Positions 11,602 to 59,924 of a DNA stretch of 64,000 bases are shown in pieces. The DNA lies in assembly GCA_963722305.1 (NCBI GenBank), contig CAVRKE010000002.1, forward strand, positions 315,878 to 379,877, given 5' to 3'. Position 1 is the first letter of the stretch; the number at the start of each line of letters is the position of its first letter. The position numbers and the translations under genes were made by a program. The notes under the pieces are model-generated. The model had not been told where the DNA came from and searched no databases. It was given only the letters and a program-made list of their open reading frames with translations. Source of the stretch: Candidatus Levyibacteriota bacterium (GTDB lineage Bacteria > Patescibacteriota > Microgenomatia > Levybacterales > UBA12049).

Positions 11602-11603
11602 TT

Positions 11604-13181: not shown

Positions 13182-13182
13182 T

Positions 13183-39139: not shown

Positions 39140-39149
39140 GGCTAGTAAA

Positions 39150-41087
39150 ATGATCACACTAACGCGCGTCCCGGAAAATCCGATACTTACACCGCATAGC
39201 GAACATGACTGGGAGCATGACGGCTCATTTAATGGTTGTGTTGCCTATGCTAACGGCGCCTATCACATGGTTTATCGTGCTCTCTCCTACCCCAAGGAGC
39301 AAAACGGTGTCAACATGCAGGTTTCCTCCGTCGGCTATGCCAAAAGTGAAGATGGAATACATTTTGTCGACCACAGGCCAATCATTTTTCCGACAGAAGA
39401 TTGGGAAATTTACGGTTGTGAGGACCCAAGAATTACCTACATGGACGGAAGATTTTATATTTTTTATACTGCCCTTTCTGAGTTTCCCTTTAAACCACAT
39501 GGGATTAAGTTGGGACTGGCGGTAACTCGTGATTTTGAAGCTTTTGAAAAACACCCGGTTACCACCTTTAATTCAAAAGCCATGGCACTGTTTCCGGACA
39601 AAGTTAACGGTAAAATGACAGCGCTTTTAACCATGCATACGGATTTACCGCCGGCTAAAATTGCTCTGGCACAGTTTGACAGTCAGGAAGATATTTGGTC
39701 ACCGGTCTTTTGGACCCACTGGTATGATGATGCCAATACTCATATTATTAATCTACTGCGTGATATCCGTGACCAGGTTGAGTTGGGAGCCCCACCAATC
39801 AAAACCAACCGCGGTTGGCTGGTAATCTACTCTTACATTAAAAATTACATGTCAAACAATAAATCGTTTGGGATTGAGGCTATGCTTTTAGACGGCGACA
39901 ATCCGCGTAAAGTCATCGGCAGGACGGAAGGACCGCTTTTAATTCCCCAGGATAAATATGAGCTTGAAGGAAATGTACCAAACGTTGTTTTCCCATCCGG
40001 CGCGTTAGTTAAAGACGACGAGTTGTTTGTTTATTATGGCGCCGCGGATACCAACTGCGCTGTCGCAACTTGTGAACTTGAGGTACTGCTTGACGATCTA
40101 AAACCGGTCACAAATTCCGTTTCTACCAGTTTTGCTTTACCCGATACCGATAAGTTTGTCCGGTTTGAAGGAAATCCTATTATCACACCTATTTTGGAAT
40201 TGGATTGGCAAAAAAAGGGCACTTTTAATCCTGCCGCAGTTTACGCAAACGGAAGAGTCCATTTGGTTTACCGCTCCCAAAGCGCCGAAGGGACCTCCGT
40301 TTTAGGTTATGCTTCCAGCAAAGACGGTGTCACCATTGATGAAAGGTTAGATTATCCCATCTATACTCCCAGGGAAGATTTTGAGATGAAAATCAATCAG
40401 AAAGGTAATTCCGGCTGCGAAGATCCAAGAATTACAAAAATTAACGACCGTTATTTTATGACCTATACTGCTTACGACGGAGTTAATCCGCCAAGAGTGG
40501 CTTTAACTTCAATCTCTATTAATGATTTCTTAAATAAAAATTGGAATTGGGAAAAAGCAAAACTTATTTCTCCGCCGGGGGTCGATGATAAAGATTCTTG
40601 TATCGTCAAAAGAGTCAGAGGGGACGGTTATATTGCTTTCCATCGCTTAGGAGACGTTATCTGGATGGATAAATTAAGAGACCTGGATTTTCCGGAAAAG
40701 AAATTTTTATCCGGCGGGATTATCGCTCAACCCAGAAAAGACAAATGGGATAATGTAAAAGTCGGCATTGCCAGCCCGCCGATTGAGTCGGAACACGGTT
40801 GGATTCTTTTATACCATGCCGTTTCTAACCCGGGATTTCTTTATAAAGTTGGGGCAATGCTTTTGGATTATGATGATCCCAAAAACATACTCGCCCGCAC
40901 CAATGAACCGGTTTTTGAACCGGAAAAACCATATGAATTAAAAGGCAATGTGCCAAATGTTGTTTTCCCATGCGGCACTGTTACCATTGACGAAACCATT
41001 TATATGTATTATGGCGGTGCAGATAAGGTCATCGGCGTTGCCACCATGCCACTTCAGACACTGGTTGAAATTCTGCTTGGAAGATAA
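39150..41087 (+). CDS. Tandem-duplicated GH130 protein (two complete GH130 domains in one 645-aa polypeptide)
   Basis: Domain 1: GCEDPRITYMDGRFY ... VYYGAADTNCAV. Domain 2: GCEDPRITKINDRYF ... YYGGADKVIGVA. Confidence 0.75.
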   Translation: MITLTRVPENPILTPHSEHDWEHDGSFNGCVAYANGAYHMVYRALSYPKEQNGVNMQVSSVGYAKSEDGIHFVDHRPIIFPTEDWEIYGCEDPRITYMDGRFYIFYTALSEFPFKPHGIKLGLAVTRDFEAFEKHPVTTFNSKAMALFPDKVNGKMTALLTMHTDLPPAKIALAQFDSQEDIWSPVFWTHWYDDANTHIINLLRDIRDQVELGAPPIKTNRGWLVIYSYIKNYMSNNKSFGIEAMLLDGDNPRKVIGRTEGPLLIPQDKYELEGNVPNVVFPSGALVKDDELFVYYGAADTNCAVATCELEVLLDDLKPVTNSVSTSFALPDTDKFVRFEGNPIITPILELDWQKKGTFNPAAVYANGRVHLVYRSQSAEGTSVLGYASSKDGVTIDERLDYPIYTPREDFEMKINQKGNSGCEDPRITKINDRYFMTYTAYDGVNPPRVALTSISINDFLNKNWNWEKAKLISPPGVDDKDSCIVKRVRGDGYIAFHRLGDVIWMDKLRDLDFPEKKFLSGGIIAQPRKDKWDNVKVGIASPPIESEHGWILLYHAVSNPGFLYKVGAMLLDYDDPKNILARTNEPVFEPEKPYELKGNVPNVVFPCGTVTIDETIYMYYGGADKVIGVATMPLQTLVEILLGR

Positions 41088-41128: not shown

Positions 41129-41950
41129 ATGTTTTCCTTCCGAACAAAAATCATTATCTTAAGCATTCTCTTTTGTATTTCTCTAACCATCACCAAAACT
41201 GTATTTGCGCAAACGCCAACGGCAGCACAAAACACTTCAACAGCCGTTGAAGGAGCAGCAACTTTAGGTGTGGCCCATATCGTTGAAGTTGCGAATAACA
41301 ATATTCCGGACGGAAGTATTCTTTCTTCTTCAAAACAAGGCGCCGTACTGTCGACCATTCCCTATGATTCCCAAGTTTTAGGCATTGTTTCACGGGATGC
41401 GGCAATTATTTTAGATACTACCGGAGAAAAAAACGGTGTCCCCGTTATTTCGGTCGGCACAGTTTATATTTTGGTATCAACCCAACAAGGTTCGATTAAA
41501 AAGGGTGACACTCTGACTACCTCAACCATTCCCGGGGTGGCTGTCAAAGCGGTTAAGGACGGTTATGTTTTAGGCGAAGCTTTGGAAGATTATACAAACC
41601 CAAATATCAAACAAGTTGATAAAATGGCTGTTAATCTTGAGCTCCATTATTTTAACTCGAAACCAACCTTAGCCGGAACTTTATCGGATATTCTGAAACT
41701 GGTCGTTTTACCAACCCAAGAAGGACCCGGCCCAATCTTTAAATACCTGGTGGCGGCAGGGGTTGTACTGGCATCCCTTGCTCTAGGATTTCTAAGTTTT
41801 GGGCGAACAGCTGCCAAAGGCGTTGAGGCACTGGGAAGAAATCCGGCGGCAGGCAGAATTATTCAATTGGGAATTATTTTTAATGTTACTATCGTGGTGG
41901 TAATAGTTGCAGCCGGTTTAATTATCGGATTTTTAATTTTGCGGCTCTAA
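41129..41950 (+). CDS. Secreted protein with a C-terminal two-helix membrane hairpin
   Basis: Signal peptide ending TVFA-QT, then a ~200-aa soluble domain. C-terminal ...LASLALGFLSFGRTAAKGVEALGRNPAAGRIIQLGIIFNVTIVVVIVAAGLIIGFLILRL. Confidence 0.5.
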   Translation: MFSFRTKIIILSILFCISLTITKTVFAQTPTAAQNTSTAVEGAATLGVAHIVEVANNNIPDGSILSSSKQGAVLSTIPYDSQVLGIVSRDAAIILDTTGEKNGVPVISVGTVYILVSTQQGSIKKGDTLTTSTIPGVAVKAVKDGYVLGEALEDYTNPNIKQVDKMAVNLELHYFNSKPTLAGTLSDILKLVVLPTQEGPGPIFKYLVAAGVVLASLALGFLSFGRTAAKGVEALGRNPAAGRIIQLGIIFNVTIVVVIVAAGLIIGFLILRL

Positions 41951-41971: not shown

Positions 41972-43681
41972 ATGAAGCGCGAAAAACCGTTAACTTTTCA
42001 AAGTATATTTTTCCCTTTCACTACTAAGAAGGCAATTATTTTTATTATCCTTATTGGATTTGTCGTCTACTTTAATAGTCTGTTTAACGGGTTTGCTATC
42101 GATGACCTGGGATTAATTGTAACCAATCCGAACGTTCACACAATTGCTTCTATACCGGATATCTTCCTAAACTATACCCGAACTCAACTGGGAAGTAATA
42201 GACCGCTGCCAAGCTCTATTTATGCAATATTGTATACCTTCTTTCAAACAAACACCTTTGCCTACCATCTGATTCAAATTATTTTACATATCTCCAATGC
42301 CGTCCTTATTTTTATTATCTTCAAAAAATTCTTAAAACAGGGACTGTCTTTCTTTTTGGCTGTGCTGTTTTTGGTTCATCCGATTAATGAAGAAACAGTC
42401 GTATATATAGCAAATTTGCAGGATGTTTTGTTTGTTTTCTGCGGATTATTGTCATTATATCTTTTGCAAATAAATTCTAGATTAAGACACGTCATTTTTG
42501 CCAATATTTTATTGCTGATGAGCCTATTTTCCAAAGAAACGGCAATCCTTTTTCTAGCCGTTACATCTCTCTATGTCTATTTTTATAAAAAGAGCCGCTT
42601 ACTGCTGCATGGATTGTTTATGTTAATTATAAGTGCTATTTATATTTGCTTTAGATTGATTTCCAATTCTTCCGTTTTACCGGATCAATATGTTCCGATT
42701 ATGAGAATGTCACTTCCGGAAAGAATGGTTAACATACCCGCTATAATTTTATATTACATACGGATCTTGCTTTTCCCTAAAGACATGGTTGCTCTTCATT
42801 CTTGGGTAATCAGAGAGATACAATTTTCCAATTTTTTTCTTCCATTAATCATTGACCTTCTATTTATTGCTACTTTATCTTTAATGTTTATCTATATTTA
42901 CAGAAAAGAAAAAGACAGAAAACCGGTTATATTTTTTTCTGTATGGTTTTTGTGCGGATTAGTTCTTACTCTACAATTCATTCCGCTTAACGTAACTGTT
43001 GCAGATCGCTATTTTTATTTTCCTCTTATCGGTCTTTTGGCAATTATCGGCTTATTCTATCAAGCGATTAAACCAAAAAGAATTGAAAAGGTATTTTTAG
43101 TAATGGCAGTGGCTCTTTTGCTTGTGCTTTCTTTAAGGACTATGGTGAGAAATTCAAATTGGAAAAATCAATCTATACTACTTGCCCATGACGAAAAATT
43201 AGCTAAAAATGACTATTTACAAGAACTATCCTTTGGCCTAAACCTTATAGAGCAGAATAAATATAACCAGGCTTTCCCCCACGTACAACAAGCTATAAAT
43301 CTTTACCCCCAAAGCTGGAAAGCCTGGACAACCTTAGGTGCGCTGTACTACATAAAAGGTAACTTTCCCCAAGCGGAAAATGCTTATTTTAAAGTTATCT
43401 CAATTAGAAATTATTCTGTCGCCTATGAGGACTTGGCGCTAATTTTAATAAAATACGATAATATTATTAAGGCCAGAGATTTTATTAGAAAAGCTGTCAA
43501 GCTTTACCCAAATAGTCAGAAACTGTGGTTTTACAGTATAGTAACCGAAAACAAAACCGGTAATTATGCAAAGGCTTTACAATCCGCTAAAAATTATTAT
43601 GAATTAACAAAGGATAAAGAAGGATTAATTATTTATTCTCATTTGGAGCAAAAACTGCCAATAGATATAGAATTAAGATAA
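41972..43681 (+). CDS. GT-C fold membrane glycosyltransferase + C-terminal TPR repeats (TMTC/PMT_2-TPR-like), paralog 1
   Basis: Conserved N-terminus LTFQSIFFPFTTKKAI, loop-1 DD motif (GFAIDDLGLI), ~11 TM, and TPR-like C-terminus (NLYPQSWKAWTTLGALYYIKGNFPQAENAY...). Confidence 0.7.
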   Translation: MKREKPLTFQSIFFPFTTKKAIIFIILIGFVVYFNSLFNGFAIDDLGLIVTNPNVHTIASIPDIFLNYTRTQLGSNRPLPSSIYAILYTFFQTNTFAYHLIQIILHISNAVLIFIIFKKFLKQGLSFFLAVLFLVHPINEETVVYIANLQDVLFVFCGLLSLYLLQINSRLRHVIFANILLLMSLFSKETAILFLAVTSLYVYFYKKSRLLLHGLFMLIISAIYICFRLISNSSVLPDQYVPIMRMSLPERMVNIPAIILYYIRILLFPKDMVALHSWVIREIQFSNFFLPLIIDLLFIATLSLMFIYIYRKEKDRKPVIFFSVWFLCGLVLTLQFIPLNVTVADRYFYFPLIGLLAIIGLFYQAIKPKRIEKVFLVMAVALLLVLSLRTMVRNSNWKNQSILLAHDEKLAKNDYLQELSFGLNLIEQNKYNQAFPHVQQAINLYPQSWKAWTTLGALYYIKGNFPQAENAYFKVISIRNYSVAYEDLALILIKYDNIIKARDFIRKAVKLYPNSQKLWFYSIVTENKTGNYAKALQSAKNYYELTKDKEGLIIYSHLEQKLPIDIELR

Positions 43682-43686
43682 TATTT

Positions 43687-45441
43687 ATGACAACCCAAGA
43701 TGACAACAAAGAGCAAGGATTAACTTTTAAGAGTTTATTCTTCCCTCTGACTACCAAAAAAATTGTCGCTATAATTACCGGCGTCGGGTTTTTGGTGTAC
43801 TTTAATATCCTCTTTAACGGTTTTGTCTGGGACGATTTGACTTATATCATCGGCAATACCGACTTAAAACCTTTTTACCTGTTGAAACTAATGGGCGGGA
43901 ACACTTTTAATTCAAGCGGCTATTACCGTCCGCTGCCGGCTATTTATTTTTCTATCCTTTATAACCTTTTTGATAACTCCGCTTTTTTCTATCACTTTAT
44001 CCAATTATCTTTGCATGTTGTTTGCGCTATTTTGCTGTTTTTTATTTTTAGGAAATTTTTCAAAAAGACCTTAGCCTTGGTTATTGCTCTTATTTTTCTT
44101 GTCCATCCGATTAACGTTGAATCTGTTGCCTATATCGGAGCTTCGCAGAGCGAGCTTTATTTTCTTTTTGGTGGACTGGCTTTTTACTTATGTCTTAAAG
44201 ACGTTTTGGAAAATAAAAAAATATTTTTTGTCCATATACTATTATTACTGGCGCTTTTGACTAAGGAAGTTTCAGTTTTATTCTTTTTTCTAATTTATTT
44301 TTACCGTTGGCTTTATAAAAAGGGGCTTTCAAAAATATTTTTCTTGTCTTCTGTGGTTACATTCTTTACTTATTTAAGTATCCGCTTTTGGGGATTGGGG
44401 GGAACCATTCTTGAAAAAATGCATCTTATTCCTATTTCGGAAATTTCTCTCTTGGCAAGAATAACAAATATTCCGATTATATTTTTTTATTATTTGAAAA
44501 CTTTCTTTTTACCCGTAACTTTAGTTATCGACCAAATCTGGACGATCAAAACAATCGATTTTGGGAATTTTTATTTTCCGCTTATTGTTGACGTATCTTT
44601 TTTAATTTTTATTTTTGCCGCTCTCTTTTATTTTATCCGTAAAAAGAATCCTGACTGGAAACCATTTTTATTTTTTATGATTTGGTACTTGCTAAGCATG
44701 AGCTTACTTTTGCAAATATTTCCCTTGGATATGACTGTTGCCGACCGTTGGTTTTATTTTCCGATGGTCGGGATTTTGGGGATGATGGGAATTTTAGCTA
44801 AGCAGGTTTTACCGCAAATTTTGAAAAAGTATTCGGTCTTGGCGTTAAGCGCGCTGATAGTGTTGTTGGTTGTTTTATCGCTTCGGACAATGATTAGAAA
44901 CGCCGACTGGTATAGCATATTTACGCTTTATTCAAAAGATACAACAGTTTATCCAAATTACGACCTGGAAGATTTTCTTGGTGCATATTTGGTTGGGTTA
45001 AAGGATTACCAGGGAGCAAAATATCATTTCGAAAAATCCGTGCAACTTCTTCCTCATGACACTAATATGTTTAATCTGGGCTCTGTTTATGAAACCCTTG
45101 GAGACTATAAGAAAGCAATGACTTATTATCAAGAAGCCCTTGACGTCAAGAACAAATACTCAATCCATACAGATGTCAGACGGGTTGCTTATATAGGCTT
45201 GGGAAGATTAATTCTTCTTCACGAACATCCGACAACCATTGTTCCTCAACTAAAAAATGCCACAGAAGAATTTCCAAGCAATGGCACATTTTGGGCATAC
45301 CTGGCAATTAATCAATATTTTGCAAATCAAGACAAACAAGCCTTAATTTCCGCCAAGAAAGCAATAACTTTATTCCCGAATGAGTATACCAATCAACTTT
45401 ATCAAAAAATTTTGCATAAACAAGCACTAATGCTGCAATAG
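43687..45441 (+). CDS. GT-C + TPR membrane glycosyltransferase, paralog 2
   Basis: LTFKSLFFPLTTKK..., GFVWDDLTYI, C-terminal TPRs (LGSVYETLGDYKKAMTYYQEAL). Confidence 0.7.
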   Translation: MTTQDDNKEQGLTFKSLFFPLTTKKIVAIITGVGFLVYFNILFNGFVWDDLTYIIGNTDLKPFYLLKLMGGNTFNSSGYYRPLPAIYFSILYNLFDNSAFFYHFIQLSLHVVCAILLFFIFRKFFKKTLALVIALIFLVHPINVESVAYIGASQSELYFLFGGLAFYLCLKDVLENKKIFFVHILLLLALLTKEVSVLFFFLIYFYRWLYKKGLSKIFFLSSVVTFFTYLSIRFWGLGGTILEKMHLIPISEISLLARITNIPIIFFYYLKTFFLPVTLVIDQIWTIKTIDFGNFYFPLIVDVSFLIFIFAALFYFIRKKNPDWKPFLFFMIWYLLSMSLLLQIFPLDMTVADRWFYFPMVGILGMMGILAKQVLPQILKKYSVLALSALIVLLVVLSLRTMIRNADWYSIFTLYSKDTTVYPNYDLEDFLGAYLVGLKDYQGAKYHFEKSVQLLPHDTNMFNLGSVYETLGDYKKAMTYYQEALDVKNKYSIHTDVRRVAYIGLGRLILLHEHPTTIVPQLKNATEEFPSNGTFWAYLAINQYFANQDKQALISAKKAITLFPNEYTNQLYQKILHKQALMLQ

Positions 45442-45527
45442 TTAAATAATTTATGCATCACCGGAGTAATGATATTGCAATGATAGATTGTTTAAACTAA
45501 TATTTATACGCCCGGTGCCTTTTACAT

Positions 45528-47537
45528 ATGCTTAATTATTTCTTCCTTTATGGAAAACGTTTAAGAGCAGAAATTATTATTTTCCTATCTTCCTTAATTG
45601 TTTACTGTTTGATGCTTTCGCATTCTGTCGTACTTGGTGATAGTGGTGAATTTTTAACTGCTGCCGCTATTAACGGTGTCCCTCATGATCCGGGTTTTCC
45701 CTTATACAGTTTGCTTACCAGGATTTTTTTCTTGCTAGGACATAGTGCCTGGGCCGTTAATCTTACTTCCGCTATTTTTGCTTCTTTAGCTCTTACCTTT
45801 ACCTATCGTTTGGTAAAAACCATGACGGGAAATGGTTCGGCCGCATTATTTGCCACACTTTCGCTTGGCACTTACGAGTTCTTCTGGTTTTATGCTTTGG
45901 TGGTGCAAATCCATACGTTACAAGTTTTTATTTTATCCCTTCTTTACCTTTCTCTAGTGTATTTTTTAAAAACCGGGAAGCTTAAATATCTATATTTAAC
46001 CGGTATTGCCTTCGGTCTAGGAATGACCAATAGTCAAACCATAGTTCTTGCTTTACCAAGTATTTTTATCGCTCTTTTTTTTATGCGCAAAATTATTTCT
46101 TGGCGCGTCGTTGTAAAACTAGTGGCTTTTTCGGTTTCTTGTCTTTTGCTTTATTTTTATACGTTTATCTCTGCCTCCTTTAGGCCCGCCTTAAATTGGG
46201 GACAAATTCACGATTTACAAAGTTTAGCACATATGTTTTTCCGCATGGACTACGGCACTTTTAACCTAACTTCCGGAAATCTATCCGCTCCTTTTATTTA
46301 TTCATCTTTTGTTTATTATCTTGAAGTTATGATAAAAAGCGGTTGGCTGGTTTTGCTCTTTGCTTTAATTTCACTTTATTATTTAAAGAAAAAAGACGCT
46401 ACTTACTTAGCTATTCTTTTTGGGCTTTTATTCAACGGTCCTTTTTACTATCTAATTATGAATCAACATATCTTTTCGGTAGTTTACAAAGCAAACGTAG
46501 AGCAATACCTGTCTTACTCATTCTTTTTTGTGGCGGTATTAGGAGGATTGGGATTTTATATTCTGACCAGTCGTTATAAAATAGACTCAAAAGTTTTATA
46601 TCTTATCGCTTTCCTTTTATTTGTTCCACTGTTTTTCATTAATCTTGGAAAAATAAATTTAAGCAGGAATAATTTGGTTTCGGAAACTACAAAATTTCAG
46701 TTCTCGCAAATTCCTAAAGATGGCATTGTTTTAACCGTCGGTGACGACTTTTATTTCCCATCCCTTTATCTTCAAAATCTTGAACGGTTTAGAACCGACA
46801 TCACGGTAATTGATCTAGGATTACCGGAAAGCTGGTATCAAGATTCGGTTTTTAAAAAAAGACCGGAACTTGCTTCTTATTTTAATAATTCCGGTCCCGA
46901 TTATATAAAATTCTGTCAATATTTTTCAGCCCAAGGCAAATTATTTATCTATCCCTGGTATCCCGATTACGATGTTTATTTTAAAAATAAATGTGACATT
47001 ATTCCCTACGGACTTTTGGCCAAAGTTGTTCCCAAAAATCAAGCCGGAAATATTTCGGCAATAAAAAATTACAACGACGAATCATGGGTAAACTATTTAA
47101 AAATCGCTTCCTTGGAAAGTTACAAAAATAGTACGCAAAGGTCCAGAGAAGAGTTATTTCTTTTGGCCGAACAAAAAAATTTTATCGGAATTTATTATAA
47201 CCGCAGCGGCAAACAAAGCTGGGCGTTAAACGAATTTGTTGAAGCAAGGACAATTTCTTTGGATGAATATTATTCTTTTTTAAACGAAGCTGAAATTTAT
47301 TTTGAAAAAGGAAATTATAAGAAAGCTGCCGATTTGCTTGAGAAGGCTATTGCCCGCGAACCAAATGCTTCCGACTTGTATTACTCTTTGGGCATCATAA
47401 ATGTCAAACTGAATAACTTGGATAAAGCTTATGAAAACTTTAAGGACTATAGTGATTTTAATCCTCCGGCCGACGAAAGACTCAAAAATGCCCAGGATTT
47501 TATTCAACAGTATCAAACAACAAATAACGTTTTATAA
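45528..47537 (+). CDS. GT-C + TPR membrane protein of a different subfamily (DUF2723/TMEM260-like, GDSGEF motif)
   Basis: N-terminal ...LGDSGEFLTAAAINGVPHDPGFPLY. Polytopic membrane protein with TPR-like C-terminus (YYSLGIINVKLNNLDKAYENF). Confidence 0.6.
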   Translation: MLNYFFLYGKRLRAEIIIFLSSLIVYCLMLSHSVVLGDSGEFLTAAAINGVPHDPGFPLYSLLTRIFFLLGHSAWAVNLTSAIFASLALTFTYRLVKTMTGNGSAALFATLSLGTYEFFWFYALVVQIHTLQVFILSLLYLSLVYFLKTGKLKYLYLTGIAFGLGMTNSQTIVLALPSIFIALFFMRKIISWRVVVKLVAFSVSCLLLYFYTFISASFRPALNWGQIHDLQSLAHMFFRMDYGTFNLTSGNLSAPFIYSSFVYYLEVMIKSGWLVLLFALISLYYLKKKDATYLAILFGLLFNGPFYYLIMNQHIFSVVYKANVEQYLSYSFFFVAVLGGLGFYILTSRYKIDSKVLYLIAFLLFVPLFFINLGKINLSRNNLVSETTKFQFSQIPKDGIVLTVGDDFYFPSLYLQNLERFRTDITVIDLGLPESWYQDSVFKKRPELASYFNNSGPDYIKFCQYFSAQGKLFIYPWYPDYDVYFKNKCDIIPYGLLAKVVPKNQAGNISAIKNYNDESWVNYLKIASLESYKNSTQRSREELFLLAEQKNFIGIYYNRSGKQSWALNEFVEARTISLDEYYSFLNEAEIYFEKGNYKKAADLLEKAIAREPNASDLYYSLGIINVKLNNLDKAYENFKDYSDFNPPADERLKNAQDFIQQYQTTNNVL

Positions 47538-47585
47538 ACTTTTGTCAGACTTGCAAATTAAATCTACTCAGACTAATATTTATCC

Positions 47586-49352
47586 ATGAACGAAGAGAAA
47601 GAATTAACTTTTAAAAGTCTTTTTCTTCCCTTTACCAGCAAAAAAGCGGTTATTCTTATTGTCTTAATCGGACTGCTTATTTTCTCTAATGGCCTCTTTA
47701 ATAATTTCGTCAGGGACGACGTTTCACAAATATTATCAAATCCAAATATTCAATCGCTTAAAAACGTTCCCGGCTTATTTTTAGGAAATAGATTGGTATC
47801 GGAAAAAAATACCTTGCTTGGAGGAACTTACTTCAAACCGCTGCTGGATACAACCTTTTCTTTAACCTATGCCCTATTCGGCGCAAACCCTTTTCCTTTT
47901 CATTTTTTTCAGATAAGCTTATACATTGTTAATGCTTGCATCCTGTTTGTTTTATTAAAGCAATTTTTTAAGCAATCCCTTGCCTTTATTCTGTCTTTGG
48001 CTTTTTTGCTCCATCCGATAAATAGCGAAGTTGCATTATACATTTCGGCAACTCAGGAAGTTTTATTTTTATTCTTTGGATTATTATCTTTACTGGTATT
48101 AAAAAAAACTGAATCGCTAAAAGGAATTTTATTAACAGGTTTACTTCTATTTTTTTCTTTACTTTCAAAAGAAACCGGGATTCTGTTTATTTTTATCGCT
48201 TTAGTTTATTCGGTTATTTATAAAAGAAAAGTATTTTATCCTTTGTTGGCGTTTTCCTCTTTATCAACAGTCATCTACCTTCTTTTACGCATTCAGGCAA
48301 TTGGAATATTTACCAATCTGTCTAATTTCCCCTTCGGAAGACTTGATTTAATGACACGGCTAATAAATATACCGGAAATTATTTTATTCTATCTTAAATC
48401 TTTCTTTTTTCCTTTTTACTTTTCAACTTCATATAATTGGTTTTATACTAAAATTAACTTCAGTCATTTTTTAATTCCGCTGCTAATTGATATTGTATTT
48501 TTTTCTTTGATTTTAACTAGTACCGTTTTTATTTTTAGGAAATCTTCCCGAAAATTTTTCCTGCTGTTTGTTTTTTTTGTAGTCTGGTTTTTATCCGGAA
48601 TGCTATTCCATTTACAAATTATTCCTCTTGACCAGACTGTTGCCCCAAGGTGGTTTTATTTCCCAATGATTGGACTATTTGGAATGATTGGAGTTTTACT
48701 GGAAATTTTTCGAATTAACTTTAACAACAAATGGATTATCTTTATTGTTGCGTTAATACTAGTAACTCTTTCTCTAAAAACTTCTTCACACAGTTTTGAG
48801 TTTCGTGATGATGTGACCTTGACCAATCTCGATTTGGCAACTTCCAAATACACAACAGACTACAATATGGAATACCTGATTAGTTATATGTATTATAACC
48901 AAGGACGTTTGGAGGAAGCAAAAATCCATGCACTAAAATCAATAGCGCTTTTCCCTACCATCACTAATAATACAAACTTAGGGACGATCTATAGCCGTTT
49001 GGGAAATTACGAAATGGCAAAAGCTTCATATCTTCAGGCCTTGCAATACGGAATCGATAGGCTTCCTTACGAAAATTTAGCCTACCTTACCATTTTATCC
49101 GTCAAACCGGAGGACGAAAATTTTATCAAAAACGTTTCTCTTAAAAAATACCCCGATGACGGGGTGCTTTGGTTTAATCTGGCAATTGTGCAATATAAAT
49201 TAGGGGAAGCAAGTGATGCAAAAGCGTCTATTCAGAAAGCGGAAATGTATTACGAAAATCCTAATCTTAATTTTGTTGATTACATAATTACAAATCATAA
49301 GCAGCTCAATATAAAGGCTAAAAACGGTAATGTTACTTTCTATACATATTAA
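47586..49352 (+). CDS. GT-C + TPR membrane glycosyltransferase, paralog 3
   Basis: LTFKSLFLPFTSKKAV, NFVRDDVSQI, TPR C-terminus. Confidence 0.7.
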   Translation: MNEEKELTFKSLFLPFTSKKAVILIVLIGLLIFSNGLFNNFVRDDVSQILSNPNIQSLKNVPGLFLGNRLVSEKNTLLGGTYFKPLLDTTFSLTYALFGANPFPFHFFQISLYIVNACILFVLLKQFFKQSLAFILSLAFLLHPINSEVALYISATQEVLFLFFGLLSLLVLKKTESLKGILLTGLLLFFSLLSKETGILFIFIALVYSVIYKRKVFYPLLAFSSLSTVIYLLLRIQAIGIFTNLSNFPFGRLDLMTRLINIPEIILFYLKSFFFPFYFSTSYNWFYTKINFSHFLIPLLIDIVFFSLILTSTVFIFRKSSRKFFLLFVFFVVWFLSGMLFHLQIIPLDQTVAPRWFYFPMIGLFGMIGVLLEIFRINFNNKWIIFIVALILVTLSLKTSSHSFEFRDDVTLTNLDLATSKYTTDYNMEYLISYMYYNQGRLEEAKIHALKSIALFPTITNNTNLGTIYSRLGNYEMAKASYLQALQYGIDRLPYENLAYLTILSVKPEDENFIKNVSLKKYPDDGVLWFNLAIVQYKLGEASDAKASIQKAEMYYENPNLNFVDYIITNHKQLNIKAKNGNVTFYTY

Positions 49353-49386
49353 TATTTTGAATTAGTTTGTATACTTAACTTGGAAA

Positions 49387-51168
49387 ATGAATTTATTTAA
49401 AAATATTCTTCAGCGCAAAAGGCCAATTCTTAAGATAATAATTAGTTATTCACCTTATCTTCTGCTTCTATTCTTTGCCTTCTCCTTCTTTTTTAGAAGT
49501 GACGTTTCCTTTGACCAGGACCTTGGCAGACACTTAAAACTGGGACAAATTATCGTACAAACATTACAAGTTCCCAAAATTAACCTATTTTCTTATACAA
49601 ATCCCGGCTTTCCTTTTATTAACCACCATTGGCTGTTTGAAGTAATTGCTTACTTGGGAAACATCACTATCGGCGTGCAGGCTTTACTGATAATTAAGCT
49701 AATTATTTTGTTGTGCGTAACTTTTGTAAGTTTGGTTCTCGCCAGAAGAACAAAGTCGGCTTTATTTATTCCAATTTCGTTCTTATTCCTTCATCTCTTA
49801 AGAGAAAGAACCGATCTTAGACCGGAAATTTTCAGTTTTCTTTTTACAGTTATAACTTTTTACATCTTGGATAAATTCGAAAAAAGTGAATCAAAATTAA
49901 TTTATCTTTTACCCCTAATTTCACTGATATGGGTCAACACTCATATTTATTTCCCCGTGGGAATTTTTTTACAATTAATTTTTTTAGCCAGCTTCTTGTT
50001 CCAGCGGTTTTTCCAAAAAAACTCTAAACCGGAAACTTTAAGAAAGATTAAAACATTGGGGGCAATTACCGGAGCTTCAATTGTAGTGTCTTTATTGAAC
50101 CCGAATTTTCTAACCGGTGCTTTATACCCGTTTACCGTTTTTAACAACTACGGCGTGGCTATAACCGAAAATCAAACTGTTTTTACGCTTATAAATATCG
50201 GCTTCCCCGACCAAAATTTTTTGTTTTATTATATTGCCGGTTTTATTGTTTTGGCTTCTATTTATTTTAGTTTATGGCGAAAACCAAATTTTAAGAATAT
50301 TTTGCTTTCTCTTTTGGGACTTGGGCTTGCTAGCCAAAGTATCAGGGGCTTCCCTTACCTTGTTTTTATATCCCTGCCGGCAGTCTTGCAAAATTTTAGC
50401 TATCAAAAATCTAATTTTGCCACAAAAATTCTGAACTTGATAGTAGTTATTTTAATTTGCGTTGAAGCTATCTTTTACTTTAATGGAAATTATCACTTTC
50501 TAACTTATCTTCCCAATAAAGCTTCCTTAACTTTTGACCAGGATGCAAAACCGGCCCTGGATTTTCTTTTGAAAAACAATCTACCGCAACCTATTTTTAA
50601 CAATTTTGACATCGGCAGCTACATTATTTACCGCGCATATCCAAAATACAAAGTTTTTATTGACGGTAGGCCCGAAGCGTATCGGGCCAGTTTTTTTCAG
50701 AAAATTTATCTCCCCATGCAAGAAAACTATCAATTATTTAAAAAGGAAGATAAGAACTATAACTTTAAAACGGTCATTTTTTCAATTACCGACCAAAACC
50801 CAAGAACTATTAACTTTTTGAATTTGATTACAAAAGACCCTGCATGGAAAACTGTCTTTTTAGATCAGTTTATGATTATCTTGGTAAGAAACGGCTTCGA
50901 AAATAATCTAAAAACAATTGACTTGAACGCACTTAATCCCAACAATTACAATTATAAGGATTGTGTAGCTTATACAAACTTAAGTGCTTTTCTTTGCAAC
51001 ACCCAACATTTGAATCGCGGCGAGGCGTTTGATGAAAAAGCTCTCAAGCTTTGTCCCAATAATCCGGCCGCCAATGATATTATGGCCAATATCTTAGCCC
51101 GTGAAGGTAAAAGTCAGAATCTTGTCTCACAATACAGTGCAAAAGCTAAAAACTGGGTTTTCTGGTAA
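49387..51168 (+). CDS. Polytopic GT-C-like membrane protein + C-terminal TPR-like region (third subfamily; FDQDLGRHLKLG loop motif)
   Basis: 593 aa, ~12 TM, acidic loop-1 motif, TPR-like tail (...ALKLCPNNPAANDIMANILAREG). Confidence 0.55.
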   Translation: MNLFKNILQRKRPILKIIISYSPYLLLLFFAFSFFFRSDVSFDQDLGRHLKLGQIIVQTLQVPKINLFSYTNPGFPFINHHWLFEVIAYLGNITIGVQALLIIKLIILLCVTFVSLVLARRTKSALFIPISFLFLHLLRERTDLRPEIFSFLFTVITFYILDKFEKSESKLIYLLPLISLIWVNTHIYFPVGIFLQLIFLASFLFQRFFQKNSKPETLRKIKTLGAITGASIVVSLLNPNFLTGALYPFTVFNNYGVAITENQTVFTLINIGFPDQNFLFYYIAGFIVLASIYFSLWRKPNFKNILLSLLGLGLASQSIRGFPYLVFISLPAVLQNFSYQKSNFATKILNLIVVILICVEAIFYFNGNYHFLTYLPNKASLTFDQDAKPALDFLLKNNLPQPIFNNFDIGSYIIYRAYPKYKVFIDGRPEAYRASFFQKIYLPMQENYQLFKKEDKNYNFKTVIFSITDQNPRTINFLNLITKDPAWKTVFLDQFMIILVRNGFENNLKTIDLNALNPNNYNYKDCVAYTNLSAFLCNTQHLNRGEAFDEKALKLCPNNPAANDIMANILAREGKSQNLVSQYSAKAKNWVFW

Positions 51169-51183
51169 GAGCATTAAAAGGAT

Positions 51184-52926
51184 ATGAAAAATGAAGAACA
51201 ACCGCTGACTTTTAAAAGTCTTTTTGTCCCTTTTACCAATAAAAAGGCAGTTACTCTGATGATAATTATTGGCTTAATTGTTTTTTCAAACGGACTGCTT
51301 AACGGTTTCGTCGGCGATGACCAGGGGCAAATTATCGACAATTCATTTGTCCACTCAATCGGCAATATCCCTATTTTTTTCCAAAGCAGCACCTTTTTTA
51401 ACGGCAACTACCACCTGCTTATCGGCAATTATTTTCGGCCGCTAATGCTTACCTATTTCTCTATCCTTTATCATTTTTTTGGGGCTAACCCTTTTTTCTT
51501 CCATTTTGCGCAAGCTTTTCTTCATCTTGCGAACGCCATTTTAGTATTCTTATTTTTGAGATATTTTCTGAAAACTCTACCGGCGTTAATTTTGTCTTTA
51601 ATTTTTCTTGTCCATCCGATAAATAGTGAAGTTGTCTATTATATTTCCGATTCCCAAGAAATTTTATTTTTCTTATTTGGCATGCTTTCCTTACTCACGT
51701 TTTTGAAAATAAATTCCAAAAGATATCTTTTCCTACCGGCTATATTTCTATTTCTCTCATTGGTTTCAAAAGAAAGCGGAATATTGTTTTTCCTGTTAAT
51801 AATAATTTACGCTTTGCTATTTAAACGAAAACATTTATTGAATATTTTGATTTATTGCTGTTTATCGGTTTTGCTTTTTTTAATATTACGGGTTCATGCT
51901 GTTGGGTTGTTTTCTACTCCGTCAAATTCTTCAATTGCCGGATTTTCTCTTTTAATCCGGATGCTGAATATTCCGGCGATGTTTTTCTATTACCTTAAAA
52001 CTTTTCTTTTTCCGCTTGAACTCGCCTCGAATTATCAATGGGTTGTTACAAACTTTAATTTAAATAACTTTTTTATTCCGCTGATTATTGATTTACTTTT
52101 TATTAGTTTAATTTTGGCTCCAATATTTATTTTATTTAAAAAGCATTCCAAGTTTTTAATTTCGTACATATTTTTTACTTTTTGGTTTTTACTTGGCATG
52201 GCTATTCATATGCAAGTCATTCCTTTGGATGCCACTGTTGCCGAGGGCTGGTTTTATTTTCCGATAGTCGGATTCTTAGGGATGATTGGTATAAGTTTTG
52301 CCGCAGCGAAAATTAAATTTAATCAGAACTTAATTATTGCGGTAGTTTTAATATTGATATTAGTCTTGTCGGCAAGGACAATCGTTCGTAGTTTTAATTG
52401 GAGAGACGCATTTACATTAACCTCGCATGATACCAAAATATCAAAAGACTCCTGGGCACTGGAAAATGCTTTAAGCTATGCCTACTTTGAAAAGGGTTTG
52501 TACGAAGATGCAAAAATCCAGGCAGAAAAGTCAATTAAGCTTCACCCGTACTCGACGAATTTCTTAAATCTTGGATCGGCCGAAGCGTATCTTGGAGATT
52601 ATAAAGAAGCAAAGCGAGCGTTTTTAAACTCAATTAAATACGGAGACTACTACCAGACATATGATAATCTTAGTTTTTTAGGCTTACTTTATGGAGATCC
52701 TAAAGAAGACGTAAGTTTTATCCAAGATAAAGCGCTTAAGAAATTCCCCAATGATCCAAAGCTTTGGACTTATCTTTCTATACTTGAGTATAATTTCGGT
52801 GATAAAAATAGGGCAAAAAATGATATTCAGAATGGCTATATCTTAGACCCGGAGGGACAAACTGCGGCCGTTTATAACGCGATCATGAATAATAAACCTG
52901 TGACCGTAAATAATAAACTGCAATAA
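51184..52926 (+). CDS. GT-C + TPR membrane glycosyltransferase, paralog 4
   Basis: LTFKSLFVPFTNKKAV, GFVGDDQGQI, TPR C-terminus. Confidence 0.7.
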   Translation: MKNEEQPLTFKSLFVPFTNKKAVTLMIIIGLIVFSNGLLNGFVGDDQGQIIDNSFVHSIGNIPIFFQSSTFFNGNYHLLIGNYFRPLMLTYFSILYHFFGANPFFFHFAQAFLHLANAILVFLFLRYFLKTLPALILSLIFLVHPINSEVVYYISDSQEILFFLFGMLSLLTFLKINSKRYLFLPAIFLFLSLVSKESGILFFLLIIIYALLFKRKHLLNILIYCCLSVLLFLILRVHAVGLFSTPSNSSIAGFSLLIRMLNIPAMFFYYLKTFLFPLELASNYQWVVTNFNLNNFFIPLIIDLLFISLILAPIFILFKKHSKFLISYIFFTFWFLLGMAIHMQVIPLDATVAEGWFYFPIVGFLGMIGISFAAAKIKFNQNLIIAVVLILILVLSARTIVRSFNWRDAFTLTSHDTKISKDSWALENALSYAYFEKGLYEDAKIQAEKSIKLHPYSTNFLNLGSAEAYLGDYKEAKRAFLNSIKYGDYYQTYDNLSFLGLLYGDPKEDVSFIQDKALKKFPNDPKLWTYLSILEYNFGDKNRAKNDIQNGYILDPEGQTAAVYNAIMNNKPVTVNNKLQ

Positions 52927-52973
52927 AATTAAATGATATTGTAAGTTAATTTTCCCAATGTTAATATTGGTTC

Positions 52974-54704
52974 ATGCAAGAACAACCGCTGACTTTTAAA
53001 AACCTATTTCTCCCTTTTACTACCAAAAAAGCAGTTGCGTTTATTATAATTATCGGCCTGGTTGTCTTTTTTAACGGGCTTTTTAACGGTTTTGTGGGCG
53101 ATGACAAACCATTAATTAGCAGTAACGTTGCCATCCAAAGCTTACAAAACTTACCGCAATTTTTTACCAATAGCGAAAGTGGCCATGTTTTGGAAAGGTT
53201 TTCGTACAGGCCTTTAACAACGACTATTTTTTCCGTTCTGTATTTATTATTTGGCCCAAGCTCTTTTGCCTACCATTTTTTCTTAATTATCTTTTACATC
53301 ATTAATGCCTGCCTGGTATTTTTATTCTTAAAGCAATTTTTCCAAAAACCGCTGGCTTTTGTCTTGTCTCTTGCTTTTTTGCTTCATCCGATAAATAGCG
53401 AAGTTGCTTTATACATCGCCGATATTCAAGAAGTATTCTTCCTCTTTTTTGGCATGCTGGCGCTGGTAACCCTTAGTAATTTTAAGTCCTACAAAAGTAT
53501 TGTTTTGGTAAACGTCTTGTTATTTTTATCTCTCCTGGCAAAAGAAACCGGCATTCTTTTCTATTTGGTGTCCCTGCTTTATATCTTTATCTATCAACGA
53601 AAAACTTTTTATCGCTTATTTATAAGTTTTGTATTCTCGTCCGTTGCTTATTTGGCACTGCGCTTATTTGCCCTTGGAGTTACATCCGATGCAAATGTGC
53701 TTGCTCCAATTCATGACTTAAACTTACCGGCACGTTTAATGAACATACCGGCAATTATCTTTTTTTATCTTAAGACTTTTGTTTTTCCGCTTGATTTAGC
53801 AATGTCTTATCACTGGGTTGTAACGAAAATAAATTTTAGCGGGTTTTTTCTGCCGCTAATTTTAGATCTGCTATTTTTCTCTGCCTTAATGGGTTTTGCT
53901 TTTCTAATTTACAAAAAATTCTCCCGTAAGCACCTGGCGCTTTATCTATTTTTTACTGTCTGGTTTTTAGCAGGAATTTTAATGCACTTACAAATCATTC
54001 CGCTTGACCTGACCGTTTCCGACCGCTGGTTCTATTTCCCGATTATCGGTTTACTGGGAATAATTGGAGTATTGCTGACGGTCTATAAAATAAATTTAGG
54101 TAGCAAAGCAGTAATTATAATAATCGTAGGCCTTTTACTACTCTTGTCATTAAGAACTTTCATTCGCAGTTTTGACTGGCGAGATAATTTTACTCTGGCA
54201 ACGCATGATTTGAGAATCTCAAAACAGGCTTACAATTTGGAACTCATCTTAAGCGGTGAGTATTATAACCAGAAAAATTTTAAATTTGCCGCTGTGCACG
54301 CTCAAAATTCAATTGCTTTATATCCTAATCCGGTAAGTTATACCGTTTTGGGATTAGTATACTATAATCTGGGTAATTATAAACAGTCTCGGCAATCGTT
54401 TCTGAAGGCTTTGCGCTATGCGGATTTCGAAGTTGTCTACACCAATCTAGCCATCATCAGCTTGTCGTATGGAGACAAAAATAAGAGCATCAGTTTTATT
54501 AAAAATGTGGCCCTTAAAAAATACCCCGAAAATGCCGAACTTTGGCTTTGTTTAGCCTGGCTGGAATATAACAACAATGATAAAGATAATGCCAAAAAAG
54601 CGATTACGCGAGCTTACCAATTGGATAAAAACCAACAAACTTCCACTATCTATCACGTAATTATGAATAATTTACCGCTCAAAAATAATACTACCAAGCT
54701 CTAA
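52974..54704 (+). CDS. GT-C + TPR membrane glycosyltransferase, paralog 5
   Basis: LTFKNLFLPFTTKKAV, GFVGDDKPLI, TPR C-terminus. Confidence 0.7.
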   Translation: MQEQPLTFKNLFLPFTTKKAVAFIIIIGLVVFFNGLFNGFVGDDKPLISSNVAIQSLQNLPQFFTNSESGHVLERFSYRPLTTTIFSVLYLLFGPSSFAYHFFLIIFYIINACLVFLFLKQFFQKPLAFVLSLAFLLHPINSEVALYIADIQEVFFLFFGMLALVTLSNFKSYKSIVLVNVLLFLSLLAKETGILFYLVSLLYIFIYQRKTFYRLFISFVFSSVAYLALRLFALGVTSDANVLAPIHDLNLPARLMNIPAIIFFYLKTFVFPLDLAMSYHWVVTKINFSGFFLPLILDLLFFSALMGFAFLIYKKFSRKHLALYLFFTVWFLAGILMHLQIIPLDLTVSDRWFYFPIIGLLGIIGVLLTVYKINLGSKAVIIIIVGLLLLLSLRTFIRSFDWRDNFTLATHDLRISKQAYNLELILSGEYYNQKNFKFAAVHAQNSIALYPNPVSYTVLGLVYYNLGNYKQSRQSFLKALRYADFEVVYTNLAIISLSYGDKNKSISFIKNVALKKYPENAELWLCLAWLEYNNNDKDNAKKAITRAYQLDKNQQTSTIYHVIMNNLPLKNNTTKL

Positions 54705-54788: not shown

Positions 54789-55424
54789 ATGCCCAACCTG
54801 CTCTTTCAGTTCATTTCAATCACGGCTGACCTTGTAATTTTTATCTTCATTGGCTTTTACCTTTGGAGACTCCGAAGAGAAGAAAAAGAGCTAAAAAACA
54901 AAGAAACCAAGGTTGACACAAGTTACCACGAAATCGTTAATGACGCCTTAAGTAAAGAAAGAAAAATTATGGAAGATGCTGTCGGTGAAGCCGATCAAAT
55001 CATTATTAATGCCGAATATATTAAAAAATCATCCAAAGAAATCGTTGACCAAGCCTTGCAACAGATGGTTGCCCATATTCAAAAAGAGTCGATTGAAACA
55101 GCCAGTCGGTTTATGAACAGCTATTCCGATTCATTAAAAAAACTGGCTACTACCTCGCTTATCGATTTTGAAAATGTGGCCAGGGGTCTGGAAGGAGACC
55201 TGCAAAGACAAATTAAGGAATTTCGAGAAACTTTACTTCCCGATTTAAAAAAAGAGCTCGATGATTATAAGCAAGTACGCCTAAAGCAATCCGAGGAGAT
55301 TATTAATCATGTTATCCAAAAAGCCTCACAGGAAATCATGAATAAGGCGATCTCTTTGGATGACCACCAAAAATTGCTGACCGATGCCCTGGAAAGGGCA
55401 AAAACGGAGGGGGTGTTTGATTAG
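54789..55424 (+). CDS. atpF: F-type ATP synthase subunit b
   Basis: N-terminal single TM, then a ~180-aa charged coiled coil. Positioned first in the atpFHAGDC block. Confidence 0.65.
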   Translation: MPNLLFQFISITADLVIFIFIGFYLWRLRREEKELKNKETKVDTSYHEIVNDALSKERKIMEDAVGEADQIIINAEYIKKSSKEIVDQALQQMVAHIQKESIETASRFMNSYSDSLKKLATTSLIDFENVARGLEGDLQRQIKEFRETLLPDLKKELDDYKQVRLKQSEEIINHVIQKASQEIMNKAISLDDHQKLLTDALERAKTEGVFD

Positions 55425-55970
55425 TTGGAAGAGCTAGATTTGTCGGATTTTTTTCATACAAAGGCAGAGGCAAATGATTTTTCAATTCACCTTTCGCAAA
55501 TTTCAGAAAGCATATATAAAACCGGTTTTAATCTGGAAAAAGAACTCACCGAGCATTTTGGTGTCGAAAAAAAGGATAAATTCATTTCGCTTCTAAGAAA
55601 TAATAAGGTTAATATCTATTCAAGCCCCGACTTAAAAACCTTTCTTGATAAAATTCAAGCAATAATTGCCAACCTTCCGCTGCTTTCTCTGGTGATTGCT
55701 TTTGAGCCAAACGAAGAAACACTAAAGTCTCTTTCCGAATGGCTTTTTTTAAATACGCACAAAGAGGTTTTGCTCGATATTACTGTTGACAGCAAAATCA
55801 TTGGCGGTGCAACCATTAGTTTTAACGGTAAATACACTGACTGTTCGATTAAAACTAAATTTGACCAGATTTTTCAAGATGTTTGGGCCAATAAACCGAC
55901 GACATCTGAAAAGATTGTTCTTCCCCATGGAGACCATCAAAGTGTTGAACATATTGTGGTTAGTAGATAA
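55425..55970 (+). CDS. atpH: F-type ATP synthase subunit delta (OSCP)
   Basis: 181 aa. C-terminal ...VDSKIIGGATISFNGKYTDCSIKTKFDQ matches the OSCP C-domain. Synteny supports the call. Confidence 0.7.
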   Translation: MEELDLSDFFHTKAEANDFSIHLSQISESIYKTGFNLEKELTEHFGVEKKDKFISLLRNNKVNIYSSPDLKTFLDKIQAIIANLPLLSLVIAFEPNEETLKSLSEWLFLNTHKEVLLDITVDSKIIGGATISFNGKYTDCSIKTKFDQIFQDVWANKPTTSEKIVLPHGDHQSVEHIVVSR

Positions 55971-55986
55971 AGCATAAATCGAAGAT

Positions 55987-57456: not shown

Positions 57457-57459
57457 GTT

Positions 57460-58347
57460 ATGGCGCAAAAAAAACTAATCGTTGAAGAGCTGGAAGCCTT
57501 AAACAGTTTAAAAGACCTGGCGGAAAGTTATGAAGAAATAGCAGCTATCGAAATGCAAAAAATTAGAGACTCGGTTTTGAAAACCCGCGAGTTTTTGATA
57601 GATATTTCCGATGTTTTTGTTGACCTAAAAGCCTCTTACACCAGAGAGGTGAATGATTTAATTGCCCGACGGAAAAAGGGGGACAAAAGCATATTACCGA
57701 TCCTGCAAAAAATCAATAAAGTATTAATGGTTTATTTATCGTCAAACGGAAAGCTCTATGGACCAGTTACCCAGAAAACTTTTAGGCTTTTTAGCGAAAG
57801 CCTTAAAAAAACAGACCCAAGTAGCACCGACCTTGTGATTATCGGCAATGCCGGTAAGGAATTGTATGAAAATGCAATGATTCAGAGAAAGTTTGAATAT
57901 TTTGAAATTCCCGATACCAAAGTTAATATTCAACACATCAAGAAACTGATGCAAAAATTTTTACAGTACGAAAAAGTTTATGTTTATTATGGAAAGTTTG
58001 GGAATCTGGTTACGCAATCTCCAATATTCACCAGTATTACCGGCGAGGATATTTTTGAAACCGAAAAGGTGACCCCGGTTCCCCGTGAAGATCGCTTTAT
58101 TTTTGAGCCCACCCTTGAGAAAATTTTTCATTTTTTTGAAACACAAATTATGACAAACTTATTCAGTCAAACACTGCTGGAGAACCAACTGGCCCGTGAT
58201 GTCTCCAGGGTAAACGCCATGGAAGAAGCCTTGTTAAACATCGAGGAAGAATCAAAAAAATTAAACCGAATTAGTCTTCGTTTAAAACACGCGCTGTCCA
58301 ATAAAAAACAGCTGGAAACTATTTCGGGGTTGTTGTTGTGGACATAA
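57460..58347 (+). CDS. atpG: F-type ATP synthase subunit gamma
   Basis: 295 aa. N-terminal ...LKDL..SYEEIAAIEMQKIRD and C-terminal coiled coil (RISLRLKHALSNKKQLETISGLLL). Synteny supports the call. Confidence 0.8.
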   Translation: MAQKKLIVEELEALNSLKDLAESYEEIAAIEMQKIRDSVLKTREFLIDISDVFVDLKASYTREVNDLIARRKKGDKSILPILQKINKVLMVYLSSNGKLYGPVTQKTFRLFSESLKKTDPSSTDLVIIGNAGKELYENAMIQRKFEYFEIPDTKVNIQHIKKLMQKFLQYEKVYVYYGKFGNLVTQSPIFTSITGEDIFETEKVTPVPREDRFIFEPTLEKIFHFFETQIMTNLFSQTLLENQLARDVSRVNAMEEALLNIEEESKKLNRISLRLKHALSNKKQLETISGLLLWT

Positions 58348-58427
58348 GGTGTAAAAAATTAATGAATATTTATATTATTCAAGAATTACAATTTAGTATA
58401 CAAATAAATATAAATTTATTTACATAA

Positions 58428-59924
<1,497 letters not shown>

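Follow-up and report, generated by a model that had tools for sequence, protein, structure and literature searches.

Protein O-mannosyltransferases of animals are the nearest sequence relatives of six of the seven bacterial genes reported here. Metazoan TMTC1-4 (CAZy family GT105) are O-mannosyltransferases of the endoplasmic reticulum that modify cadherins and protocadherins. Human TMEM260 (CAZy family GT117) serves the IPT domains of plexins, MET and RON. The PMT/POMT enzymes (GT39) include the actinobacterial Pmt, which mannosylates Sec-exported Pro/Thr-rich proteins from polyprenyl-phosphate-mannose. A stretch of 64,000 nucleotides from Candidatus Levyibacteriota bacterium (GenBank assembly GCA_963722305.1, contig CAVRKE010000002.1, positions 315,878 to 379,877 of the forward strand) was analyzed and is referred to as the window. 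An array of seven genes for putative membrane glycosyltransferases of the GT-C type, designated G1 to G7, was located at positions 41972-54704. G1, G2, G4, G6 and G7 constitute a TMTC-like family, designated the T family. The profile of this family matched TMTC1-4 and G3 matched TMEM260, in agreement with the TMTC/TMEM260-like architecture that had been proposed in an earlier note on this DNA. Judged by its sequences, the locus represents known enzyme kinds (GT105-like, GT117-type and one unnamed GT-C) in a bacterial form, arranged in an old, still-changing array.

The seven genes were confirmed as consecutive open reading frames (ORFs) on the forward strand, with coordinates exactly as claimed. 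Spacers within the array comprise 5-86 bp. The GC content of the array is 0.32-0.35, lower than that of the flanking GH130 genes (0.42-0.43). TMTC-like GT-C glycosyltransferases with a C-terminal tetratricopeptide repeat (TPR) domain are predicted for G1 (41972-43681, 569 aa), G2 (43687-45441, 584 aa), G4 (47586-49352, 588 aa), G6 (51184-52926, 580 aa) and G7 (52974-54704, 576 aa), the last being the modelled reference copy. The assignments of G1, G2, G4 and G6 were based on the ORF, paralogy, Pfam and hidden Markov model (HMM) matches and motifs, in addition to a PMT_2 match for G4 and a grouping with orthologs for G2. G3 (45528-47537, 669 aa) is predicted to be a TMEM260-like (DUF2723/GT117-type) GT-C protein with an alpha/beta domain and a TPR domain, and G5 (49387-51168, 593 aa) a GT-C protein that belongs to no named family and carries an alpha/beta domain plus a short TPR-like terminus. 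The five T-family proteins are full-length paralogs (35-49% identity, BLASTP E=1e-75 to 1e-176), whereas G3 and G5 gave no BLASTP match at E≤1e-3 to these five or to each other. The previous description of seven paralogs was therefore retained for five genes and abandoned for G3 and G5. The array comprises three GT-C families, not one.

A TPR end had been ascribed to each protein; Pfam TPR matches were obtained for six of the seven, but not for G5. The N-terminus shared by the five paralogs, described as near-identical, proved to be a real conserved motif and not a near-identical sequence. Its invariant residues include L6, T7, F8, F12, P14, T16, K18, K19, N38, F40, D43 and D44. Directly after the first transmembrane (TM) helix, G3 carries GDSGEF and G5 carries SFDQD, as expected from their earlier placement in two other GT-C groups. 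Promoter and terminator scanning of 36.0-55.6 kb yielded counts within shuffle expectation and no site in any spacer, and speaks neither for nor against a single operon. Scans for Rfam families and tRNA genes found nothing, and public records retrieved by exact-sequence look-up give the array proteins no names.

Homology of the T family to TMTC was assessed with N-domain sequences of human and Drosophila TMTC proteins, which were taken from a published alignment (supplement of PMC7801869) and scored with an HMM built for the membrane domain of the T family. TMTC1-4 were matched by HMMER with 62-108 bits, whereas G3, G5, both PMT_2 proteins of the window and its DUF2298 protein scored negative with the same HMM. 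The two families were aligned by hhalign over 372 columns (99.4%, E=1.3e-21; G7 residues 17-399, TMTC columns 4-433). Because both programs matched TMTC1-4 while the other GT-C proteins of the window scored negative, the T family is assigned to the TMTC family as a bacterial branch and is not merely a generic GT-C. G1, as an example, reached 474.7 bits with the N-domain HMM of the family, carries the motifs DD, RPL, HPINEE, KET and DRYFY, and gave Pfam matches to TPR and, weakly, to PMT_2. PMT_2 matches of the window copies were mostly below the curated cut-off, which was exceeded by G4 (1.3e-6).

Seven TMTC motifs, M1 to M7, have been defined (PMC7801869). M1 (DD) is invariant in 38/38 T-family members and aligns to D52/D53 of TMTC1. 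It is located in the outward loop after TM1, i.e. in the first extracytoplasmic loop as had been stated, and is encoded in G7 (D43-D44) by positions 53100-53105 of the forward strand. M4 (KE[T/Q]) is kept, with KE[T/S/V] in 5/5 window copies, as is HPI[HN][TS]E, a sequence common to TMTC and the T family that is not among the named motifs. M7 (ERxxY) is present as [D/E/P]-R-x-F-Y in G1, G2, G4 and G7. Of M2 (SHKSYRP), just Y-[RK]-P is retained and SHK is not conserved; in M3 (RxD), the Arg is lost and the Asp position is occupied by Glu or Asp in most copies. In summary of the comparison, the T family and TMTC1-4 have in common a GT-C domain of 11 TM helices that is homologous over its full length, the sequences FVxDD, YRPL, HPI[HN][TS]E, KETG and AER(x)(x)YxP, a cytoplasmic N-terminus with the TPR domain on the non-cytoplasmic side, and the occurrence of several diverged paralogs per genome. 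The T family differs by an identity of only ~23%, a much shorter TPR domain, and its bacterial, tandemly arrayed genes.

The helices modelled for G7 form 11 TM segments. The five internal cytoplasmic loops contain 2-4 Lys/Arg residues each and zero acidic residues. Because of the 11 TM segments and the positive-inside loops, the N-terminus was placed inside and the motifs and the TPR domain outside. All conserved motifs and the TPR domain therefore face outward in this model, with a topology as in TMTC. The modelled TPR domain consists of ten helices (residues 405-564), corresponding to ~5 repeats and ~160 aa. The best structural match was Pmt4, and the model has the GT-C fold with a polytopic membrane domain. 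Conserved acidic residues in the first outward loop, a GT-C hallmark, are predicted at D43-D44 in the T family, D38 in G3 and D45 in G5. Searches of the PDB with a single sequence and with a five-sequence N-domain profile gave no GT-C match for the T family; the PDB copy searched holds no solved TMTC-type structure. None of the seven array proteins has a MIR or PMT (PF02366) match in Pfam. The T family thus differs from PMT/POMT in having TPR in place of a MIR domain, no solved PMT was matched by sequence, and its affinity is with TMTC, not with PMT. Comparisons of profile versus single sequence by hhalign among the T, G3 and G5 families and a PMT_2 protein of the window were not significant.

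G3 matched the Pfam family TMEM260-like (PF11028; 7.7e-17, 62.1 bits versus a cut-off of 24.2), PMT_2 (1.2e-13) and TPR. Its residues 12-448 aligned with the human TMEM260 structure 9rql (E=8.3e-29), which supports the previous assignment of G3 to a GDSGEF/TMEM260-like group. Residue roles in TMEM260 were taken from bioRxiv 10.64898/2026.03.17.711096, where D441 is the catalytic base. Five of the six residues with experimentally tested roles are kept: D52, H67, R264, Y267 and D441 of TMEM260 correspond to D38, H53, R238, Y241 and D406 of G3. The sixth, R355, is Q326 in G3; the human R355A variant retains ~20% activity (same source). The alignment with 9rql reaches the Rossmann-like domain, and the TPR matches lie at residues 547-656. 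From these matches, G3 is predicted to hold an alpha/beta domain ahead of its TPR domain, and its parts would then follow each other in the order GT-C, alpha/beta, TPR, as in TMEM260. G3 differs from the human enzyme by Q326 in place of R355 and by its bacterial origin. Its acceptor may differ as well, because bacteria lack plexin-type clients. About ten close relatives above 43% identity were found by a word-index search of limited reach.

G5 gave no Pfam match, no NCBIfam model and, in the PDB, weak TPR matches at most. D45 is invariant in 33/33 homologs, and the model contains an alpha/beta domain followed by about two TPR-like hairpins. With about 1,200 matches, G5 marks a sizeable GT-C family for which Pfam and NCBIfam hold no model. 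A relationship to TMEM260 was dropped, as the hhalign comparison was not significant. Membership in the STT3/PglB/AglB group was rejected as well: no STT3 Pfam match and no WWDxG motif were found, and the G5 sequence contains no WWD. G5 has no detectable sequence similarity to STT3/PglB/AglB or to the C-mannosyltransferase DPY19, and differs from them by its C-terminus of an alpha/beta domain plus two TPR-like hairpins.

Homologs originated from Microgenomates-type Patescibacteria of the Candidate Phyla Radiation (Woese-, Levy-, Curtiss- and Daviesbacteria). Gene neighbourhoods were compared in 80 species-representative genomes with G5 homologs and in 79 metagenome loci centred on T-family genes. 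In the former, the G5 homolog is usually without a TMTC-like neighbour and mostly stands alone, and G5 as a conserved array member was rejected. In the latter, T-family genes occur mostly in one or two copies per locus. One locus, L126, has the order GH130, GH130, U273, a G5-like gene, five T genes, D211 and ATP synthase, where U273 and D211 are the genes that adjoin the array in the window. Six T genes followed by D211 and the atp genes are present in L090, and two T genes in L129. The position of the array, between the GH130 pair with U273 and the ATP synthase genes, is conserved in a related lineage.

The phylogeny of the duplications, as called for by the earlier note, was calculated as a neighbour-joining tree without bootstrap, from which the broad pattern alone is claimed. 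Each paralog of the window grouped with orthologs of other genomes and not with its neighbours in the array; G2, for example, grouped with L084_6340, L126_8216 and L090_6871. It follows that the duplications are old and that the copies have been kept as distinct subfamilies. Recent tandem amplification was rejected, since the paralogs fall in separate orthogroups. The TPR domains are more diverged than the membrane domains (20-40% versus 36-54% identity). Locus L081 is collinear with the window at ~89% nucleotide identity and contains a clean 5.0 kb insertion (L081 4988-10024) at the G6-G7 spacer (window 52976-52995). This insertion carries three extra T genes of 390, 591 and 451 aa, two of which are truncated. 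In the same locus, the ortholog of G4 is broken into two ORFs, and that of G3 is truncated to 434 aa (L081 1-1363 is listed with these). With 2 to 6 copies and a 5 kb indel between relatives, copies are still being gained, lost and decaying.

The rarity implied by the earlier note was overstated. In an exhaustive HMMER search with the membrane-domain profile of the five paralogs, the number of representative clusters retrieved was 82,005 at E≤1e-3 and fell to 48,273 at E≤1e-10 and to 3,474 at E≤1e-30. Many relatives already bear the labels 'protein O-mannosyl-transferase' (JGI, an automatic annotation) and 'glycosyltransferase family 39 protein' (NCBI). In the literature, GT105 is described in prokaryotes 'to a limited degree', TMTC homologues are stated to exist among prokaryotes, and distant bacterial homologs are mentioned for TMEM260. 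The literature search returned no paper on O-mannosyltransferases of Patescibacteria, TPR-glycosyltransferases of the Candidate Phyla Radiation or bacterial TMTC-like enzymes.

With moderate confidence, the array is interpreted as a set of GT-C enzymes that use polyprenyl-phosphate sugars and probably O-mannosylate secreted or wall-anchored proteins. G1 to G7 would be polytopic transferases of the inner membrane. Each would receive its sugar from a polyprenyl-phosphate carrier, and the acceptor would be located at the external side of the cytoplasmic membrane. The active site of the T family would be built from outward loops bearing DD after TM1, Y-[RK]-P, HPxNxE, KE(T) and [DE]RxxY, and the outward C-terminal domain of ~five TPR repeats would present the acceptor. 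The most likely reaction would be O-glycosylation, probably O-mannosylation, of Ser/Thr residues. Each of the old paralogs may serve a different set of clients by means of its more divergent TPR domain. G3 would follow the TMEM260 mechanism, with the catalytic base in the alpha/beta domain and capture of the peptide by TPR, and G5 may act as a third, unnamed GT-C enzyme with its own alpha/beta and TPR-like module. A lipid-phosphate donor, mannose, protein acceptors and client selection by TPR are all proposed by analogy with the characterized families. Ser/Thr of proteins appears the most likely acceptor, because the nearest relatives by sequence (TMTC, TMEM260) and by structure (Pmt4) are protein O-mannosyltransferases. 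Homology, the adjacent beta-mannoside-phosphorylase-like genes and a ManC gene found near the array in L083 suggest mannose as the sugar. The array, its paralogy, the GT-C fold, the TMTC and TMEM260 homology, the conserved functional residues, the topology, the age of the duplications and the varying copy number are shown by the analysis. The structural reading of the earlier note proved correct in direct tests, while its functional reading is plausible and unproven.

Several observations weigh against this interpretation. In M5 (DW), the Trp is kept, but the Asp, a proposed metal ligand, is replaced by S, I, N, Q or H in the window copies. M6 (PxxP) is lost and does not align in the T family. 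Among the Pfam families that had been named in advance, TPR, PMT_2 and, for G3, TMEM260-like were matched, whereas DUF1736, which covers the TM7-TM8 loop, was found in 0/38 family members at E≤0.01; the corresponding region aligns in hhalign without the DNPA signature. The chemistry may therefore differ from that of TMTC. The M7 arginine contacts the donor phosphate in related GT-C enzymes. The residue of G6 aligned to R351 of G7 (window 52231-52233) is Gly, giving EGWFY instead of ERWFY, and this replacement is shared with the orthologs L081_3195 and L092_9699, i.e. by three genomes. No gene for a polyprenyl-phosphate-sugar synthase or flippase was detected within the window, and the literature search returned no characterized bacterial enzyme of the T family. 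Lipids or glycans, and not proteins, are the substrates of many GT-C enzymes in bacteria. The proximity of the GH130 genes may reflect inherited gene order and not a functional link, because it was seen in just one other genome.

The main rival explanation, which is possible but rated as unlikely, is that the enzymes are GT-C transferases that likewise depend on lipid-phosphate sugars but serve acceptors other than proteins, such as wall glycopolymers, lipoglycans or lipid-linked intermediates. ArnT, YfhO/GtcA-type enzymes, Emb/Aft and the three-component systems of GtrB, GtrA and a GT-C protein would be the models. In this case, the TPR domains would attach the enzymes to the machinery of envelope assembly, and each paralog would be responsible for a different branch or sugar. 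However, the closest sequence relatives (TMTC) and the best structural match (Pmt4) are protein O-mannosyltransferases, and G3 keeps the catalytic base that in TMEM260 acts on peptide threonine. Furthermore, the TPR domain of TMEM260 alone binds the acceptor peptide (bioRxiv 10.64898/2026.03.17.711096).

A minor rival, considered improbable, assigns catalysis to some copies, whereas others, notably those of the G6 orthogroup, would be non-catalytic or altered-specificity partners in hetero-oligomers like the PMT dimers. The array would then encode subunits of one or a few complexes and not seven independent enzymes. The exchange of R351 for Gly, which is fixed in the G6 orthogroup, would fit such a role, as would the Gln found at the M7 Arg position in some G4-type orthologs, the tight packing of the genes on one strand, the absence of terminator-like sites from all spacers, and the obligate dimers that PMTs form according to passages of PMC12705809 and PMC7759382. 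On the other hand, DD, HPxNxE, KE and W281 are present in every T-family copy of the window, including G6, which argues for retained catalysis, and a copy content that varies between close relatives is ill-suited to a fixed complex. O-antigen ligase/Wzy polymerases or transporters fused to TPR, named in the earlier note as the refuting case, are highly improbable: the C-terminal region Wzy_C_2 of Pfam was matched in 2/38 family members, but the match to Pmt4, the Pfam scan of the 38 members and the profile test with TMTC contradict this assignment.

The four GH130 domains reported upstream of the array were confirmed. They are encoded by two genes without signal peptide at 37310-41087 (+ strand), each with two domains (Pfam GH130, 2.8e-64 and 4.8e-101). 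The product of the second gene scored 456 bits against the NCBIfam model for beta-1,2-mannobiose phosphorylase (cut-off 450). The four domains are 23-44% identical to one another, and the gene pair is syntenic in L126. U273 (41129-41950, + strand) lies between the GH130 genes and the array, also in L126. Its product of 273 aa combines a signal peptide with a ~190-aa ectodomain and has two TM helices at the C-terminus; neither Pfam nor NCBIfam gave a match for it.

Downstream of the array, D211 (54789-55424, + strand) encodes a protein of 211 aa whose sequence features are one TM helix and a long charged helix or coiled coil. It is probably subunit b of ATP synthase and marks the array's downstream boundary, which is conserved. 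It is followed by atpH, atpA, atpG and atpD in an ATP synthase run at 54789-59924, and the succession of D211 and atpH/atpA was found in the window, L081, L090, L126 and L129 without exception. No gene for an a or c subunit is present upstream of this run; the array therefore occupies the usual place of atpB/atpE.

Three further GT-C enzymes had been reported at 9.9-15.4 kb and were recovered as a second cluster (9946-15438) in which two PMT_2 proteins precede a DUF2298 protein. The last of these strongly matched NCBIfam TIGR03662 ('chlor_Arch_YYY domain', 490 bits), and the second PMT_2 protein showed a weak likeness, below the cut-off, to TIGR03663 (archaeal 'flippase activity-associated protein Agl23', E=1e-9). 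The pairing of TIGR03662 and TIGR03663 is described for Chloroflexi and Archaea and occurs here in Patescibacteria. A LytR-CpsA-Psr gene on the opposite strand adjoins this cluster.

Surface proteins are predicted at 252-1436 and 7231-8667, with a PKD domain and Big_13/fn3 domains, respectively. Their long Pro/Thr-rich linkers include TDTPTPTGQP four times and PTPTPT runs, and their C-termini consist of LAPTG or LSPTG plus a hydrophobic helix, similar to sortase sorting signals. From these features, both are plausible candidate acceptors of O-glycosylation. A PilO-like pilus assembly protein is encoded beside them (6163-6882). Proteins with an N-terminal MerR-like helix-turn-helix, one TM helix and a long Ser/Thr/Asn/Gly-rich ectodomain are encoded at 60536-61915 and 62032-64000. 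The second of these extends past the end of the window, with at least 656 aa encoded there; in L081 it reaches at least 1,649 aa. This gene accounts for the raised GC content at 62-64 kb, and the ORFs on the minus strand of this region are spurious. The window also contains a nickel superoxide dismutase gene (20887-21384) and an adjacent pair of TspO/MBR and VKOR genes (35562-36448); like the PilO-like gene, these are notable for a small genome.

TMTC1-4 and TMEM260 are disease-linked O-mannosyltransferases of animals. Bacteria with small genomes keep compact TMTC relatives of ~580 aa with intact core motifs, often as several long-diverged paralogs beside a TMEM260 homolog. That the locus is a prokaryotic system of multi-enzyme, client-specific protein O-mannosylation, and the joint, co-localised bacterial counterpart, possibly the source, of both 'non-classical' animal pathways, is a tentative and rather doubtful proposal. 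In such a system, the T-family paralogs would each recognize another class of surface protein through TPR, beside a TMEM260-type enzyme and a third GT-C family without a name. The T family is abundant and already annotated automatically, and its substrates are putative. The lifestyle of Patescibacteria involves attachment to other cells and reliance on their surfaces. If the enzymes glycosylate proteins, an unexplored surface glycoproteome would exist in Patescibacteria, the compact bacterial enzymes would offer tractable models of TMTC structure and of TPR-based acceptor choice, and the array would bear on the origin of the O-mannosylation pathways of animals.

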